Positions 28,715-37,751 of a DNA stretch of 64,000 bases are shown one piece after another. Each line of letters opens with the position of its first letter. Position 1 is the stretch's first letter. The notes under the pieces were generated by a model. That model made no database searches, was not told where the DNA came from, and worked only from the letters and a program-made list of their open reading frames with translations. A program made the position numbers and the translations under genes. This DNA is from a virus, in the IMG/VR virus record IMGVR_UViG_3300018890_000001, positions 628 to 64,627 of that record; one strand, 5' to 3'.

Positions 28715-29093
28715 TGTGTTTCCTCCATTCTTCGTATTGAACCTTGATTTTCTCGGAATACTTGGCAAACAAACGTGAATCTCGCTGTGTCCATTCAAAT
28801 TCATTTCCGGTAATAAGCCCCTTTAGTAAATAAGAAGGGTACTTGCCAAGTTCTGGAATCGTACAGTTTGTGCGCCCTTGATAAAGGTGGGGATGTGCAA
28901 TACCGTTTTCGTCAACATAATCGCGATCGATGCGACGGATTACTTTTCCAATTATTTCACCAGAGGTGCTATGGCGCACAATATCTCCTGGTTGGTACAG
29001 ATACTGAGGGTCTGGTTCTGGTAGGGGCATATCGGCTTGACATCCCCACATCTTGCATTCTCGTGTACCACACGTTCGTTTGCAGTCTTTCAT
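28695..29093 (-). CDS. Hypothetical protein (Cys-rich N-terminus + SH3-like domain)
   Basis: ATGA overlap with the nrdJ stop; CKRTCGTREC and YQPGDIVRH. Confidence 0.6.
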   Translation of the reverse strand: MKDCKRTCGTRECKMWGCQADMPLPEPDPQYLYQPGDIVRHSTSGEIIGKVIRRIDRDYVDENGIAHPHLYQGRTNCTIPELGKYPSYLLKGLITGNEFEWTQRDSRLFAKYSEKIKVQYEEWRKHNETETE

Positions 29094-30256
29094 GTTTGTG
29101 GTTCCGACAATGGTATCAAGCACTTGTCGGAATCGCAAGCTGCTGGTCCTTCGACTTCCTCTGGCGAAGTGTACCTAGAAAGTGCTTTGTAGAAATCGTC
29201 GCAGGTGCGTCGAGCTTCTACTTCTTGGCAGAGACAGTCATAAGTTTCTCGGGTGATCGGTTGAAAAGGCATTCGGGGGAACGTTTCATATTCATCGAAG
29301 CGGGCGAGGATCGCTGCTGATACGTAACCTTCGTCATTTTGGATTGCATCAAAAATAGCTTTCGCTAAATCGGCAACTTCATGTTCTCGCACCTCAATTG
29401 TCGCTGAAGTGTTGTGGGTGGTGTAGTTTTTCTGCACATTCAGGTAGTAGTCAAGTTGGGCGGTTGCTGAAAATTGACTAATATCGATTTTTTCTACACC
29501 AGGTAAGTTGGCCCAGCTCACGGCAGTCGGAATTTCAATCAACCATTCAGTGCAGCGCTCATCAAACGGATCGTCGAGCAATTGTCCGTTTTCGTCTTTG
29601 TCGGATTGTGCCGGTACGACCGTATATCCGTACTCGATCGCAGCAAGGGCGATCGGATTGTTTTTGCCGATCGTAATCCTGCGAATAAACCACTGTGCTT
29701 TTGGCGGATGCCAACCTGGAGACGCACCTGTCAGCAAAGCTTTGCTGCCCGAGGGCTGGATCGTATTACATCGATTCGGACACTTCAACCCATGTTGATC
29801 GCAATAATCTCGCACCGTAGTTTCGACTGTTTTTCGCCAGCGCACTAAGTAAGCCGTTTCGATATCTCGATACAGCGTCCCAAAATTCCAACCAGATTCG
29901 TCAACGAGTTCATAATTGTCAACATAAATGTCGAGTAATTGGGAGATTTTTTGAACATTTTGCTCAACTATTGGTTGTGGATAAAAGTCTGGGCGACCAT
30001 CAGCAAACCATTGCAACCATTTAGCTCCTAGTGCATTGACACAGAAATCAAACCAGCCAGTAAAGGAAACTCCGACAATCGGATCGAGATCGCGACTGTA
30101 CTGATATAGTGGCTCTGCAAATTGGTGTTGAAGCAAAGTCGAAACGAGTAAGCCGCCAGCGTAAAAAGCAGTATCCTGTTCTTCTAAATTGAATGGATCA
30201 AGTTGGTTAAGGTGTACCTCAGAGAGATTACATAAAAAATTTGAGCCGATAATTTC
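29090..30256 (-). CDS. nrdJ: Class II (B12-dependent, monomeric RTPR) ribonucleotide reductase, exon 2
   Basis: EIIGSNFLCNLSEVH...VGVSFTGWFD...TIQPSGSKALLTGASPGWH...ACDSDKC. Confidence 0.95.
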   Translation of the reverse strand, partial: EIIGSNFLCNLSEVHLNQLDPFNLEEQDTAFYAGGLLVSTLLQHQFAEPLYQYSRDLDPIVGVSFTGWFDFCVNALGAKWLQWFADGRPDFYPQPIVEQNVQKISQLLDIYVDNYELVDESGWNFGTLYRDIETAYLVRWRKTVETTVRDYCDQHGLKCPNRCNTIQPSGSKALLTGASPGWHPPKAQWFIRRITIGKNNPIALAAIEYGYTVVPAQSDKDENGQLLDDPFDERCTEWLIEIPTAVSWANLPGVEKIDISQFSATAQLDYYLNVQKNYTTHNTSATIEVREHEVADLAKAIFDAIQNDEGYVSAAILARFDEYETFPRMPFQPITRETYDCLCQEVEARRTCDDFYKALSRYTSPEEVEGPAACDSDKCLIPLSEPQT

Positions 30257-30505
30257 CAATTTGTTATCCCAAGGGCTTTTTATCCTTTGGTTCTACAGAT
30301 TTAAGTTTTCTGTAGGTCGGCGTACTTTTTGTATGTATATTCTTGTTACATACCTCCGCACTCTTGCCAATTTTATATTCTCTTTCGAGGTTCAATTGGT
30401 ACGCTCTACGGTGTCATGAGTTTTTTGGCTCTCGTGATTACCTCGGAATTGGCGTTTCAGCTTTCTCCGATTTTGCGAAGTTTTTAACGTGAGGCAAAAT
30501 TATCT
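30257..30505 (-). ncRNA. ORF-less group I intron (249 nt) in nrdJ
   Basis: The 5' exon ends in U paired to G in P1 and the intron ends in G. P10 pairs GAUAAUUUU with the 3' exon GAAAUUAUC. P7 pairs GAGCGUAC with GUACGCC with a bulged A. Removal restores NPCG-EII. Confidence 0.9.
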
Positions 30506-31729
30506 ACCACACGGATTTAGACCTAATCGCGATAAGCGATGATCTAACTCTTTAACAGGCATTGACGGATAACCATCTTGCATCCATTTTCGAGATTCAC
30601 CGCGATCGTAGGCTTCTAAGAATGAGGTTCTAAGGAGTTCGTTTGTAAGTAAATCTACATTGCATCTCGCAACCGCTTCGCCACCCCATTGGATCGCTCC
30701 TTCACCAGAGCGATATTGTTTAGCAACAGATTCTTTGCATTCTTCAAGTGTGGGTTTATGATGAAATACAAGCGAGTGATTAGCCATTCTTAAAGCATCA
30801 CGCTTTGGATCAATACGCCAATTTCCTTCCGTATCTTGCCCCCAAAGATTGTCCTTAGCGGATGCTCCGATTTTGTCGTTATGATTGAACTGTCGAATTC
30901 CTGCTGTTCGCCTAACGTTTCCGGCAACAATTACAATTGCCGCTTCATCAATTAACAAACTGCACTCAACTGAATTCAATCTGCGCCCGATTGCCCCATT
31001 TAATATTAAAGCGCACTTATCAAACAATTCGGGTAGTTTGATAGGGTTGGAAATGCCTCCGAACCCCTTAAGCTTTTCGCCAGCAGGACGTACAGAGCCT
31101 AGTCCAATATGGACTTTGATTGGTTCGTTAGCCAGATAACTACAATCGAACGCTAGATTGATCAACGCTTGATATGCGTCCACCCAACCTTTGCGGCTAT
31201 CTCCAACCCAAATCACAGATGTTATTGAGTTGTTGATCTGTTTAGTTTCATTTTTTCGTTGGTGTGGTGCGTACTCACCAATTTCAGAGAAGATTTCAAT
31301 CTTCAGTTGATTGCGGACTATCGGCAGGCGATCGATACAATCTTCAGTTAGGACTGCGCCAGTGCCGCAACCTTGCATTCCTAAATCCATCAACAAACCA
31401 AAAACTTCCAAGGATGTCAGCTTTAAACTGGTGCAGTTGTAAGCTCCTGGGAAGTTTTCTGGTTGTTCTATCCATTCTCGGCCGCCTACCCAAAGCCAGC
31501 GACCGGACGATAGACATTTGAAATTATACTGTTGCTCGTACAATAGGTCGTACTCCTCTTCACTTAACTTTCCTAGCTTTGAAATACCATCAATTGTCCG
31601 ATCGCACACTTCTTTCCAGGTTTCTCGGACACCGTTGTTGTTGTGTGAGTAGGAACGAAAAAATACAAATGGGGCTGATGGTGCATTTTCTGGGAACATT
31701 GGCATAATTGTTATTTCCTTGTGTTTCAA
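30506..31729 (-). CDS. nrdJ: Class II ribonucleotide reductase, exon 1
   Basis: FFRSYS...ETWKEVCDR...SGRWLWVGG...AYNCTS...GCGTG...GDSRKGW...AGNVRRTA...GLNPCG. Confidence 0.95.
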
Positions 31730-31731
31730 TC

Positions 31732-32280
31732 CTAGAATGGTAGCTCTAGTTGTACGTGATTGGATTTGAACCGTCGTTTGCGAGGTGATCCGGGTTGAAT
31801 GTTTTCCCAGCGTTTCCCACTTATAATTTTAGACACGTTAGAACCCGATATCTCGAATTTGTCGGCAATTTCTTTGTGTGTGTATTTACCACTTTGCCCA
31901 AGCTTTCTAATTTGCAAGATTTGCTTTTTGTTTAGCTTGGTATTACCAGATCCGATCTTTTTTTTGTGGGTTCCGTGTCTAATTTTATCAGCGGTGTTTT
32001 CAGCTTTTGTCCCCCATTTCAAATTGGTAAGACAATTGTTTAATCGATCGCCATCTCGATGACAACCTTCGTAACTAGAGTCTGGTGGGTATCCGTAGAA
32101 AGCGAGTAACACCACGCGGTGTAGTGCTTTTAACTTTCCCCTTATTCTGACATAAAAATAACCGTCACTGAGTATCCAGCACGGTTGTTTTTTTTCTAAC
32201 AGAAAAACATTTCCAAATATATCGACTTCATATTCGGGGGCGTATGGTATTGGTTTTTGGAATAATGCTGGTTGCAGCAT
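31732..32280 (-). CDS. Free-standing HNH homing endonuclease with C-terminal HTH
   Basis: LHRVVLLAF.G.P...CHRDGDRLNN.L.NL.WGT.AEN, followed by HKEIADKFEISGSNVSKI. Confidence 0.85.
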   Translation of the reverse strand: MLQPALFQKPIPYAPEYEVDIFGNVFLLEKKQPCWILSDGYFYVRIRGKLKALHRVVLLAFYGYPPDSSYEGCHRDGDRLNNCLTNLKWGTKAENTADKIRHGTHKKKIGSGNTKLNKKQILQIRKLGQSGKYTHKEIADKFEISGSNVSKIISGKRWENIQPGSPRKRRFKSNHVQLELPF

Positions 32281-32337: not shown

Positions 32338-34476
32338 TTAAAATGTGAGGTAATTTGGTTCATCTAATGCTTCCAGAATCACTTCGACGTGTCTTGATTG
32401 TGCGTCGCCTTTGTTGCAGAATTCTTGCAAGGCTTCGCATGAAATCACGTCGCTCAATGAAAGCCCGTAGTCTCGCATTTGGTTGAACGCATTATCGCAA
32501 TGGTTACTTGTTAACAAGTTGGTGCGAATCAGTTCGACATTAGGTTGACCTACATCTGGTAGTTTGATTTCGATAGGTGTCGTTTCGACTCCCTGAATTT
32601 GTTTTTCAACTTTGGGTGTCGTCTTCGCGACCTTCTTGGGTTTAACCGCGTTCTCCGTTGCAACCTTACCGTTTTTCCCGATCGCCAATCGTTCTTCTTT
32701 GCTCAAGCAACCGTATTGTGCTGCAACTTTCAATCGCGAATCAAGTGGCTTGATAGCTTCTTTGTTTCCAGCTCGGTACAATTCGGCGGCTTCGTAAACT
32801 TCAGTGCTTGCTAATTGGAGACGGTCACAGATCACCTCGGTGTTTAGGTCGCTCCAGTGACCTTTGATGTAGCTACCGACAGCGCCCCAAGCTTCTGAGG
32901 CAATCACTGCGAGAAAGTGACGCCCGACGGAATGCGTTAAAAACGTTTTGACTTCGGGATTGTTGATTGCACCTTGAAAGGTTGCGATCGGGCTTTCAGG
33001 CAAAGGTTCGTTATTTTTTCGAGCCTGTGCGCGTTCGTGGTTTGTGCGGTAGGTATCGAAAGCTGTTTTCAGAATCTCTTCTGCTTTTTTAATGAGTTCA
33101 CCGTCTAACTCTGGTTCTCGCTCAGGTTCCGGAGATTCCGGTGTTGGGTCGGACGCAACTTCTTTTGTGACGATTGGTGGCTCTGGAATTGGTTCAGGAG
33201 TGACGTGCGTCAAAAAGTCAACCACGTCCTCAGCTTGAATTTCGATCGCCCGCTCAACATCCAAAGGAGGTAGCGGTGGTTTTGGAACAATCTGCGACAG
33301 TACGATCGCCTGCTTTTCAGAAGGCATTGCAGTAAAAGCACCGACAAATACTTCTGGTTGAACTTCGCTTAAGTTGCTGGCAGCGAAAATCTGCCCATCA
33401 GTGTAGTTAGCTTCTGCGGTTGCTCTCAGTTTGTCAATTTCTTGGAGCAGTGGCTTTTCTGCGTGCTCTACTGCGAGCTTGATTTTGTCGAGGTGTCCTT
33501 TTTCGGAAACCAGGTGTAGTAAATCCCCGACTACTTTGGCATCTTTCGGCTTTGCACGTACCAGATCTTTGGTTGGAATTTTTTCGCTTGTACCGTCAAG
33601 GCACAACACTTCGACAAGTTCAGAATTTCCAGGTTCGTGATTCTGTATGACTACCGTATGACCGTACAGCGCTTGATGATCCCCTCTGACAATTGCGGCT
33701 TCGTGGAGTCGGGCGATCGGTTCGCCCGTAAATTTCTTTTCGCCTCGGAGTAATTTTTTCTCCTCTCCCGAGTTGTCGAGACGCACAATCACGGCGTCCA
33801 TTACATTAGACAGTACATTACCGTCTGAAGATATTTCTTCGTCGATAATTTCGACAGCGACGCCTCTCATGGTTTTGTCGAACTCTACCCGATCACCGAC
33901 TTCAGGCAACGTATAGGTTTTAATCAAATTACCGACGCGGGCGACAACTAAATCGTTTTTGGGATCTGTTTCATTCGCCACGGTTACGTCCCCTACCAAT
34001 TCATCCAAAATGGCGATCGCCACCTGCCTGCGTCGTTCTGTATCCGTGGCACGCACATTTGGTTTGGAGTAGGTATCCGGTAATTTGCCTAACAGCCCAA
34101 AACCAACACCAAGGCCGACTTCTGAAAAAATAGTTTGCAGTGCCGCTTCGGTATCTTCCGGGCGATCGAGCGCCTGCTCCCATTCGATGAGTTTGCGCCC
34201 AATTTCAATGTCTTTGCGGTATGAGGCTTTTAATTGGCGATATTTAGAGCGGAGTTTCTTCTCTTCCCCAGATGCAGCCGCTTGTTCGCGGATCTCGATG
34301 TCGCGCTTACCCAGATCCATATAGTGCTGTCGAATCAAATCTGTCAACTTTGGAGTTTCTTCCAATATCGTAGCGTTTAGATCTTCAAGCGCCAACTCCC
34401 AATCCTTGCCCATATCGACTTCCTTGGTTTTTTCGGTGGAAGTATTTTCCGAGAGATCCAGTCTTTCGTCGCTCAT
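32338..34476 (-). CDS. Large hypothetical protein (coiled-coil N-terminus, KOW/SH3-like middle)
   Basis: 712-aa ORF with acidic Pro-rich linker; no catalytic motif recognised. Confidence 0.75.
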   Translation of the reverse strand: MSDERLDLSENTSTEKTKEVDMGKDWELALEDLNATILEETPKLTDLIRQHYMDLGKRDIEIREQAAASGEEKKLRSKYRQLKASYRKDIEIGRKLIEWEQALDRPEDTEAALQTIFSEVGLGVGFGLLGKLPDTYSKPNVRATDTERRRQVAIAILDELVGDVTVANETDPKNDLVVARVGNLIKTYTLPEVGDRVEFDKTMRGVAVEIIDEEISSDGNVLSNVMDAVIVRLDNSGEEKKLLRGEKKFTGEPIARLHEAAIVRGDHQALYGHTVVIQNHEPGNSELVEVLCLDGTSEKIPTKDLVRAKPKDAKVVGDLLHLVSEKGHLDKIKLAVEHAEKPLLQEIDKLRATAEANYTDGQIFAASNLSEVQPEVFVGAFTAMPSEKQAIVLSQIVPKPPLPPLDVERAIEIQAEDVVDFLTHVTPEPIPEPPIVTKEVASDPTPESPEPEREPELDGELIKKAEEILKTAFDTYRTNHERAQARKNNEPLPESPIATFQGAINNPEVKTFLTHSVGRHFLAVIASEAWGAVGSYIKGHWSDLNTEVICDRLQLASTEVYEAAELYRAGNKEAIKPLDSRLKVAAQYGCLSKEERLAIGKNGKVATENAVKPKKVAKTTPKVEKQIQGVETTPIEIKLPDVGQPNVELIRTNLLTSNHCDNAFNQMRDYGLSLSDVISCEALQEFCNKGDAQSRHVEVILEALDEPNYLTF

Positions 34477-36581: not shown

Positions 36582-37751
36582 TTGGATACGTTTATGTATT
36601 TCACAAGTAGAAAACTGTCAAATAACTTAATTGTTGGTCTAAAAAAGGCTGAAGTTGTTTTCAATAACAAGAAGGATTGTTATGAGGTAAAGATACCACA
36701 ACTCGATCGCCAAGATTACGAGGAGTTTAAACAAGTTCTCGAAGAAATCCACGGTAAGTGGAACCATTCAGCAAACGCACACGTTTTCGAGTCCGATCCG
36801 ACAGAAATGTTAAATGCGGTGATTGAAGTGGGTTGTTTCCCTCAAAGGAAACCGCATGATGCGTTTTTTACGCCTCCAGATGTTGTAGACGATTTATTGC
36901 GATGGGGTGGCTTTCACTACTCTCAAGGAGTGAGTCATTATTACAAATGTTTAGAGCCTTCTGCCGGACACGGCTTTATAATCGATGTACTCAGAAGGAA
37001 ATACCCAGGAGTTGAAAAATGTTTTGACTGCTGCGAAATAGACGGTTTTAATCGGGATATTTTACAGCGAAAAGGTTACAACATTGTTGGCGATAATTTT
37101 TTACAAACCAAGCTCGAACCACAATATCACTGGGTAATTATGAACCCACCTTTCAACGGGAAGGCTGGCGATTATATAGCACATATTGAAGCTGCATTTG
37201 AATTGCTGCTTCCAGGTAGAGATTTGCTGGCGATCGTGCCCGAATCATTTCTAACTTCACAGGCTAAGCGCGTTGTGAAGTTTAGGAATAAAGTGTTTAC
37301 CTATGGTGAACACGCCAATTTACCCGACAAGGTTTTTGCTGAATCGGGAACTCAAATCAAATGCTGCATGATAAAAATGCAGAAGTACAGTCCTGTAAAG
37401 ATTCAAGAATTTGAAACACCAGGATATCTATACGATTACTTTGATCTTTATACAGGTCAAATTATCGTCAGCTTAACGAGTGAGTCAGAATGGTTTAAAC
37501 GTTTTAGCGCACTCGTCAATCAAGTCGAGCAAGGTAGGATAACTACAAAAGATATTTTTTTGAAGGAAGTTGTACGTGATGCGGATGATATTGTTTTATC
37601 TGCAATTTCACGTCATGAAGCTAGTTTCAGATGGGATGATTTCACCAAACAGAGATTAGCTGAATACTTTCTTCAAGATATGATTGATGAATATTTGGAT
37701 GGGCAGAATCCTTTCCAGAGTACAAAGCCTAGACAGTTATCGCTGTTCTAG
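36582..37751 (+). CDS. Orphan amino-DNA methyltransferase (N6A/N4C), phage type
   Basis: Motif I CLEPSAGHG and motif IV IMNPPF; N-terminal GKWN....HVF segment. Confidence 0.85.
   Translation: MDTFMYFTSRKLSNNLIVGLKKAEVVFNNKKDCYEVKIPQLDRQDYEEFKQVLEEIHGKWNHSANAHVFESDPTEMLNAVIEVGCFPQRKPHDAFFTPPDVVDDLLRWGGFHYSQGVSHYYKCLEPSAGHGFIIDVLRRKYPGVEKCFDCCEIDGFNRDILQRKGYNIVGDNFLQTKLEPQYHWVIMNPPFNGKAGDYIAHIEAAFELLLPGRDLLAIVPESFLTSQAKRVVKFRNKVFTYGEHANLPDKVFAESGTQIKCCMIKMQKYSPVKIQEFETPGYLYDYFDLYTGQIIVSLTSESEWFKRFSALVNQVEQGRITTKDIFLKEVVRDADDIVLSAISRHEASFRWDDFTKQRLAEYFLQDMIDEYLDGQNPFQSTKPRQLSLF

Follow-up and report, generated by a model that had tools for sequence, protein, structure and literature searches.

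What does a free-standing HNH endonuclease gene do when it lies directly upstream of an intron-containing ribonucleotide reductase (RNR) gene in a phage genome? This question is raised by the locus around the class II RNR gene nrdJ in a stretch of viral DNA of 64,000 nucleotides (nt), hereafter the window, which spans bases 628-64627 of the 199.8-kilobase (kb) record IMGVR_UViG_3300018890_000001, rated complete. A first-pass annotation had read this locus as a candidate for collaborative homing, in which the HNH enzyme cuts intron-less nrdJ near the codons of the NPCGE motif and the intron protects the allele that carries it. The comparisons presented here lead us to lean, with only slightly better than even confidence, towards a nickase of the I-HmuI/MobE type that acts near its own insertion site and is probably tethered to the sliding clamp, with the intron or an intein hitch-hiking on the exchange of nrdJ alleles. 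The following features of the window carry the argument (a slash within a motif marks an insertion or splice site).

31732 to 32280, minus strand: free-standing HNH endonuclease gene, 182 amino acids (aa), ATG start, TAG stop at 31734-31732
31996 to 32064, minus strand: HNH catalytic motif CHRDGxRxNNCxTNLxWGTKAxN, codons 73-95, aligning with DHKDG...N of I-HmuI
31819 to 31929, minus strand: three-helix helix-turn-helix (HTH) DNA-binding domain, codons 118-154, aligning with the C-terminal domain of I-HmuI
31706 to 31731, minus strand: HNH-nrdJ spacer, 26 nt, with an AAGGA ribosome-binding site at 31716-31720
30506 to 31705, minus strand: nrdJ exon 1 (class II RNR), residues 1-400, ending in NPCG; Pfam RNR-II_ins_dom and RNR_Alpha
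30257 to 30505, minus strand: group I intron without an open reading frame (ORF) of its own, 249 nt at NPCG/E, ending in G
29090 to 30256, minus strand: nrdJ exon 2, from E401 to the end including the stop codon

The HNH endonuclease gene

The first-pass annotation was right in describing an intact HNH-HTH ORF. The 182-aa frame is open throughout, matches Pfam HNH_3 (PF13392; 39 bits against a cut-off of 24.8, residues 51-96) as well as PHROG HNH-endonuclease families, and aligns with the nickase I-HmuI over the whole core (residues 13-157 with residues 9-160 of 1U3E; phmmer, E 1.8e-6). Matches to HTH domains in residues 115-154 are weak (Pfam Sigma70_r4 and HTH_7). An alignment of 50 sequences gave an AlphaFold model (predicted local distance difference test, pLDDT, 81), which replaced an earlier model from 12 close orthologues that was too poor (pLDDT 54.6), places HTH helices at residues 118-130, 135-142 and 146-154, and its only significant Foldseek match was 1u3e (E 1.9e-6, 173 columns). 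Residues H74, N86 and N95 are invariant in the 12 orthologues and in the 50-sequence family alignment. With a domain above threshold, the catalytic His and the metal-binding Asn, the protein has the marks of the I-HmuI-like HNH_3 family, and it has the two-domain build of that family as well, an N-terminal nuclease followed by a C-terminal HTH. Judged by these comparisons, the gene is a free-standing and catalytically intact homing-type endonuclease.

All 12 orthologues retain intact frames, and the ratio of nonsynonymous to synonymous divergence (dN/dS) is 0.07-0.12 (Nei-Gojobori, pairs with unsaturated dS). This pattern points to a gene under strong purifying selection that is functional and old in its clade. 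The wider HNH family is very large and takes in 76,900 representative clusters together with 1,501 phage records, in all cases at less than about 50% identity. The ORF is the sole HNH_3 gene of the 199.8-kb genome; membership in a multi-copy homing endonuclease family was considered and rejected, as the genome holds neither a second copy of the HNH gene nor another HNH_3 gene.

On the minus strand the gene order is c1 (34476-32338), HNH ORF (32280-31732) and nrdJ. The earlier statement that the HNH ORF ends 2 nt before nrdJ holds for the mechanically called reading frame, which opens with a TTG at 31729, and fails for the real start, which is the ATG at 31705 by homology with relatives (MSMFPENAP versus MPMFPENAP). 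An AAGGA-bearing spacer is also found in relatives, with a length of 21-28 nt in five of them.

The HNH gene and nrdJ insertions in related phages

Relatives were surveyed with the HNH protein and, independently, with an NrdJ alignment, and loci were mapped against uninterrupted NrdJ and HNH. A scan of viral contigs with a single-protein query of nrdJ exon 1 found nothing, and the alignment query was needed. Ten phage-like lineages with the gene order c1-HNH-nrdJ-c4-c6, hereafter clade A, were recovered, and these are phages of roughly 190-200 kb that probably infect filamentous (Microcoleus-like) cyanobacteria. In 10/10 lineages the gene directly 5' of nrdJ is an HNH orthologue (64-91% identical), and the five clade A loci found through NrdJ alone all carry it. 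To judge from these loci, the HNH gene is a long-standing resident of its spot across the clade. The NPCGE site is far less constant, with an intron in three lineages, an intein in three, no insert in two, and the site not seen in two.

This phage: nrdJ with ORF-less intron at NPCG/E
L020: nrdJ with ORF-less intron at NPCG/E and an in-frame insertion near residue 566
L010/L011: nrdJ with a 1,152-nt version of the same intron carrying a 334-aa ORF
L007: nrdJ with intein at NP/C
L008/L021: nrdJ with intein at NP/C
L009: nrdJ with intein at NP/C
L012/L048: nrdJ with intein at residue 265; NPCGE site off the contig
L005 (one contig with L016 and L061): nrdJ uninterrupted
L013/L022: nrdJ uninterrupted
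L014/L015: nrdJ partial; NPCGE site not seen

The nrdJ genes of phages and of their cyanobacterial hosts are crowded with inteins at several sites, namely, in L005 numbering, at about residues 75-78, 265, NP/C397, C407 and 566-570 (loci L007, L008, L009, L012, L020, L038, L050, L062, L064, L066-L070, L073 and L081). Two or three elements can occur together in one nrdJ, such as an intron at 399 with an intein at 407, or inteins at both 397 and 407.

Exchange of nrdJ alleles

The histories of the two genes differ: HNH identity tracks the flanking genes, whereas nrdJ identity tracks the kind of insert. This is demonstrated by two pairwise comparisons at the aa level.

This phage versus L010: c1 39%, HNH 64%, nrdJ around the intron site 80-83% identical
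This phage versus L007: c1 69%, HNH 91%, nrdJ around the intron site 56-62% identical

Likewise, the intron-bearing nrdJ alleles (this phage, L020 and L010) group together against the history of HNH and the flanking genes. The change is abrupt between L020 and L007, which are 92-100% identical in nucleotide sequence through most of c1 and all of HNH; counted from the nrdJ ATG, they show 0-4 differences per 30 nt between -240 and +119 and 14-15 from +120 onwards. In the window this boundary lies as follows.

31586 to 31616, minus strand: allele-exchange boundary between L020 and L007, at about nt 90-120 of nrdJ

The nrdJ tract common to this phage and L010 begins at nt 0-30, and L007 has a second break at its intein site, its N-part being 58-67% and its C-part 82% identical to L005. 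Because HNH follows the flanks, nrdJ follows the type of insert, and the boundaries fall at nt 0-120 of nrdJ, these sequences indicate that nrdJ alleles are swapped between phage backgrounds as cassettes, the left edge of which abuts the HNH gene. Nuclease genes have been reported at the boundaries of inter-phage exchange (PMC10448857).

The nrdJ intron in phages and hosts

Two further statements of the first-pass annotation are borne out. The intron lies about 1.2 kb downstream, starting 1,200 nt past the nrdJ ATG and 1,226 nt past the HNH stop codon, and it has no endonuclease of its own: the only frame inside it is a 43-aa ORF with a TTG start (30264..30395). This ORF spans stretches of the intron that vary in sequence and length among homologues, and because it crosses them it is unlikely to be a gene. 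The splice junction is exact and in frame, with exon 1 ending in GGT and exon 2 starting with GAA at 30256, and the spliced NrdJ of 788 aa is colinear with the uninterrupted 785-aa NrdJ of L005.

No group I match to the intron came from Rfam, whether at the gathering threshold or with E relaxed to 10, and the intron was therefore established by comparison. The NPCG/E site is occupied in 22 other loci by 19 distinct sequences, 17 of which are homologous to the window intron (60-96% identical); these 17 homologues make up the intron alignment, from which the unrelated insert of L040 and the long ORF-bearing version of L010 were left out. In the consensus fold, compensatory changes are present in 28 of the 49 predicted pairs. 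P1 (GGU/AGA pairing with UUUGCC) has a U.G at the splice site, and the exon pairing is CGUG with CACG. The pseudoknotted P7 covaries, GCGUA with UACGC becoming GCAUA with UAUGC in one member, and P8 varies freely in sequence among the homologues yet stays paired. The folding z-score is -4.1. On these grounds we regard the insert as a genuine group I intron; the Rfam result weakens its classification by database and leaves the structural case intact. We read the hairpin between P7 and P3' as suggestive of a subgroup IA-like layout. Over 118 nt, the intron also shares 72% identity with the 3' part of the helicase-gene intron of Bacillus phage PJN02. As a link to the HNH gene the PJN02 intron was rejected; it encodes a different endonuclease, phrog_4645.

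A second group of nrdJ genes, clade B, is 54-60% identical to clade A and is flanked by cellular genes (DUF4394/RTX protein, Ser/Thr kinase, ABC permease, ClpP and PNPOx). Because these flanks are cellular and the phage DnaN finds its nearest counterparts in Microcoleus, Scytonema and Coleofasciculus, we take clade B to be the chromosomal nrdJ of filamentous cyanobacteria, which are the likely hosts. The same intron of about 250 nt is present at the same site in at least 20 clade B loci, about 75% identical to the phage copy, and no HNH homologue was found in the 0.8-5 kb examined upstream of nrdJ in these loci. When exon tracts were examined for likeness to the host genes, the phage intron alleles gained no more than 5-10 points near the site, too little to decide on recent capture from a host.

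The claim that the intron protects this allele from the HNH enzyme finds no support in an intron that is so widespread where the HNH gene is missing upstream. One member of the intron family also carries a candidate endonuclease: the 334-aa ORF in L010 (L010:7782-8933) has NUMOD3 and endonuclease-I/resolvase-like matches, and this ORF would be a simpler source of intron mobility. Because it is common to hosts, has an endonuclease-bearing version and competes with inteins for its site, the intron is not a dedicated partner of the HNH gene.

Several variations on the intron were observed in cyanobacterial nrdJ genes. A second intron of 245 nt, unrelated to the first (47% identity), occupies the same NPCG/E in another cyanobacterial nrdJ (L040:6234-6478). 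Some host copies of the first intron have inserts in peripheral loops (L033:6186-6534, L068:7371-7702 and L067:3138-3452), including one of 96 nt in the P8 region and one in P9, and runs of short tandem repeats (TTGTCAC/TTGTCCC and CCAATGA) in the hairpin after P7.

Terminal motifs and the sliding clamp

Compared with I-HmuI, the HNH proteins of clade A have an additional N-terminal peptide, (M)LQPxLFQ, and a 22-residue tail that ends in QLELPF. Each contains a candidate motif for binding the beta clamp.

32257 to 32274, minus strand: N-terminal Q-P-x-L-F-Q, candidate beta-clamp-binding motif, codons 3-8
31735 to 31752, minus strand: C-terminal Q-L-E-L-P-F, candidate second clamp-binding motif, codons 177-182

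The N-terminal motif is found in 12/12 clade orthologues and in none of the 38 nearest non-clade HNH_3 proteins. QLELP[FL] is present in 11 of the 12 orthologues, the remaining one having QLEFSL, and again in 0/38 non-clade relatives, most of which end just past the HTH. Bacterial beta-clamp-binding motifs take the form QL[SD]LF or QLxLxL, as in Pol IV, and the N-terminus of Hda reads QLSLPL; both peptides of the HNH proteins resemble such motifs. The phage encodes a three-domain DnaN clamp (G000 C1 177007-178167; L083:1501-2661), so that conserved terminal peptides, a flexible tail (residues 160-182 have low confidence, pLDDT about 55) and a cognate DnaN, as expected of a client of the beta clamp, are found together here.

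A model of the complex of HNH with the phage DnaN scored 0.73, against 0.03 for the best control; the score mark applied is reached, roughly and with own alignments used, by 58/80 solved complexes and 2/110 mismatched pairs. Three runs share at least 86% of contacts, with partner pLDDT of at least 70, and HNH residues 1-7 are modelled in the canonical clamp pocket (DnaN 173-178, 245-254 and 370-376). The model thus lends support to a predicted docking of HNH on the phage DnaN. As in known beta-clamp clients, short Qxx(L)F-type terminal peptides are involved, here modelled in the pocket between clamp domains II and III; what would differ is that a homing-type HNH nickase is the client and that its clamp, a DnaN, comes from the phage. 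We know of no published homing-type HNH nickase that is a client of a phage-encoded DnaN, and a full-text literature search returned no report of clamp-binding motifs on phage HNH endonucleases. That a homing-type nickase has here become a client of the phage beta clamp through peptides at both termini, and nicks replicating DNA, where a nick becomes a break, is put forward as a tentative possibility.

Similar peptides occur at other C-termini in the genome. Of the 622 ORFs, 4 have a strict QLxL(x)[FL] among their last 12 residues, against about 0.6 expected. For instance, a methyltransferase-like ORF (window 36582-37751, plus strand) ends in KPRQLSLF, of which QLSLF is the canonical clamp-binding pentapeptide, and KPRQLSLF(G) is kept in the L007 and L009 orthologues though the preceding sequence varies; an L5 gp82-like protein (G000 C1 139886-140329), one of the four, ends in QLSLFG. 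It should be noted that these genome-wide counts are leads, not evidence.

Comparison with known homing systems

T4 MobE is a better precedent for this locus than the cyanophage enzyme F-CphI. MobE is a promoterless, free-standing HNH endonuclease encoded upstream of nrdB, between nrdA and nrdB, which nicks nrdB at nt 122-126 and moves the endonuclease-defective nrdB intron in trans, and co-conversion in T4 extends over no more than about 2 kb (PMC2790892). At both loci a free-standing HNH gene lies 5' of an RNR gene whose group I intron is without a working endonuclease, and the window HNH, like MobE, is probably promoterless and co-transcribed. The MobE nick at nt 122-126 of the downstream gene compares with an exchange boundary at about nt 90-120 of nrdJ, and the window intron, 1,226 nt from the HNH stop codon, lies within the 2 kb or so over which a MobE-type enzyme could carry it. 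The two systems differ in that the reductase here is class II nrdJ and not class Ia nrdB, that MobE is optional among T-even phages whereas the window HNH is present in every sampled relative, and that the window intron, unlike that of the MobE locus, is common to host chromosomes and alternates with inteins. Terminal clamp-binding-like motifs have not been described for MobE.

In its build the window HNH resembles I-HmuI (1U3E), the strand-specific nickase of Bacillus phage SPO1, with an HNH nuclease, a C-terminal HTH, and conserved catalytic His and Asn. The two share about 24% identity, and the window protein has the extra N-terminal peptide and 22-residue C-terminal tail; I-HmuI is encoded inside an intron of the DNA polymerase gene, whereas the window HNH is free-standing. 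The likeness to F-CphI and psbA of S-PM2 is one of arrangement, a free-standing endonuclease beside a cyanophage gene whose group I intron is ORF-less (Zeng, Bonocora and Shub 2009, summarised in PMC6083498). By that account, F-CphI has an Endo VII motif and cleaves where the intron inserts, and an allele that carries the intron is protected by it, which is what defines collaborative homing of this type; the window enzyme belongs to HNH_3. Unlike F-CphI and its intron, the window HNH and the intron are uncoupled in distribution and history, and the HNH gene also stands beside an uninterrupted site.

Evolutionary scenarios for the HNH gene

Four scenarios can be considered for the HNH gene and its neighbourhood. 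In strict collaborative homing, HNH would cut at or near NPCGE, and the intron would split the site, protect its allele and be mobilised. The arrangement of the locus is consistent with this, since a free-standing endonuclease does adjoin a gene with an ORF-less intron, and NPCGE is interrupted in 6/8 clade lineages of known state, where an insert would split a site that spans it. However, NPCGE is often interrupted in HNH-less cyanobacterial genes too, the intron is common where HNH is absent, and HNH is found with no insert (L005 and L013/L022) or with inteins (L007, L008 and L009), so that HNH and intron do not preferentially co-occur. An HNH gene that sits beside an intact NPCGE and is nevertheless under purifying selection is difficult to reconcile with cutting at that site; however, the two uninterrupted lineages differ from the intron alleles at 7/8 wobble positions around the site, and such synonymous differences could confer immunity to HNH on their NPCGE alleles. 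The discordant histories of nrdJ and HNH, the endonuclease-bearing intron of L010, the 1.2 kb between the NPCGE site and the HNH gene, and the different nuclease family of F-CphI (an Endo VII enzyme, PMC6083498) all count against strict collaborative homing as well, and we consider it unlikely. What stands of the original proposal is a free-standing, homing-type HNH gene that adjoins nrdJ with an ORF-less intron downstream; action at NPCGE does not.

That the gene is a relic in decay, formerly mobile but by now without function and still awaiting its loss, would have general precedent, as homing endonuclease genes commonly degenerate after fixation in the homing cycle. With 12/12 frames intact, invariant catalytic residues and dN/dS of 0.07-0.12, this is very improbable here. 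A more serious candidate, though in our view a doubtful one, is that the HNH protein has been domesticated, either as a clamp-associated nickase that starts recombination-dependent replication or repair, or as an HTH regulator of the c1-HNH-nrdJ operon. Fixation in all sampled lineages, a dN/dS of about 0.1 across divergences with saturated dS, clade-specific terminal motifs with predicted docking on the phage DnaN, and the status of a lone HNH_3 gene, unlike phages with many homing endonuclease genes, would all be expected of a domesticated protein. To our knowledge no such role has been described for I-HmuI-type enzymes; a place beside a conserved essential gene and at allele-exchange boundaries is what one expects of homing endonuclease genes, there is no indication of a replication origin in the vicinity, and fixation may be a sampling effect, as 10 lineages were seen.

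The scenario that we favour is a nickase acting near its own insertion site. The HNH protein would be an active, site-specific enzyme of the I-HmuI/MobE type, with an N-terminal beta-beta-alpha-metal nuclease and a C-terminal HTH, probably co-transcribed with c1 and nrdJ. Its target would be the first ~100 nt of nrdJ in related co-infecting phages, near the HNH insertion site; the 5' end of nrdJ is favoured because MobE provides a precedent, the intron is 1.2 kb away, and the exchange boundaries fall at nt 0-120. The nick would lead to gene conversion, by which whole nrdJ alleles would be swapped between phages, and the parasite at NPCGE, intron or intein, would be carried along passively from about 1.1 kb further on. 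The intron could possibly, by analogy, hitch-hike on conversion started by HNH, and would do so at most. The terminal Qxx(L)F-type peptides gained in the clade would probably tether HNH to the phage beta clamp, as the motifs and the model suggest, and the tether would couple nicking to replicating DNA.

Several points weigh against this scenario, and we would like to emphasize them. A target at the 5' end of nrdJ is inferred from two boundaries of recombination, which might just as well mark the far ends of long tracts of co-conversion that endonucleases of the inteins or introns had begun at NPCGE, or might come from local variability of nrdJ at nt 120-180. Sporadic presence, the classic mark of homing, is not seen: the HNH gene occupies the same junction in 10/10 lineages, admittedly a small sample, and distribution does not speak for homing because no HNH-less relative with an empty site was found among the 10 clade A lineages. 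A fixed element has no naive targets, and selection on it needs another explanation. Continued selection might reflect competition of diverged orthologues in mixed infections or a domesticated role; such competition between orthologues has been proposed for I-HmuI and I-HmuII (mentioned in PMC2790892). As regards transcription, a consensus scan found no promoter-like or terminator-like site in the HNH-nrdJ gap, but promoter-like sites in the scan were fewer than in shuffles, which makes it uninformative, and the promoter and terminator scans consist of consensus matches only. The model of the complex is of a DnaN monomer and leaves the C-terminal motif unplaced, and clamp-peptide complexes are common among solved structures, so that the model may have passed through likeness only. 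In addition, clamp motifs do not usually have proline as their second residue, as the N-terminal motif does.

Neighbouring genes and other mobile elements

The order c1-HNH-nrdJ is kept across clade A.

32338 to 34476, minus strand: c1, 5' neighbour of HNH, 712 aa

No match to c1 was found in Pfam or PHROG. Homologues of c1 lie 5' of HNH in nine lineages, and in L013/L022 the contig or a TnpB-like ORF is there instead. The 3' end of c1 is hypervariable (window 32400-32700, minus strand, the last ~300 nt), with 47-58% identity between phages that are about 80-90% identical in the rest of c1 and HNH. The methyltransferase-like ORF (window 36582-37751, plus strand) encodes 389 aa with an NPPF motif and a weak match to an Eco57I methylase.

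Other nuclease genes are found close to nrdJ. TnpB/Cas12f-like (IS605 OrfB) genes or fragments adjoin nrdJ in three phages. In L013 and L022 (L013:876-1262; L022:242-1378 and 2350-2736) a TnpB-like fragment lies between HNH and nrdJ, L022 having a longer TnpB-like ORF upstream of HNH as well, and in Cylindrospermopsis virus CrV-01T (L003:6097-8103) a TnpB-like gene or fragment occupies the position that HNH has in the window. On the other side of nrdJ, about 640 nt downstream, L010 encodes a 423-aa RRXRR+HNH (IscB-like) ORF (L010:10724-11995). The 5' flank of nrdJ seems to attract mobile nucleases.

Implications

Free-standing homing endonucleases beside RNR genes are well known in T4-type phages, and the basic finding is ordinary in this respect. 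Still, the locus offers a clean data set from nature. The claimants to a single block of catalytic-site codons, that for NPCGE, are the ORF-less intron, its version with an ORF, another intron of unrelated sequence and several inteins, and they are found in phages as well as in their hosts. With a constant nuclease gene at the edge of the exchanged segment, the locus is useful for the study of competition between parasites and of allele recombination among phages and hosts. If the terminal motifs do bind the clamp, this would be, as far as we know, the first demonstration that a homing-type nickase is tethered to the replisome. Such tethering could explain both the fixation and conservation of the HNH gene and the exchange of nrdJ cassettes that starts beside it, and would suggest how nicks are turned into recombinogenic breaks and what can keep a 'selfish' gene under selection once it has become fixed.

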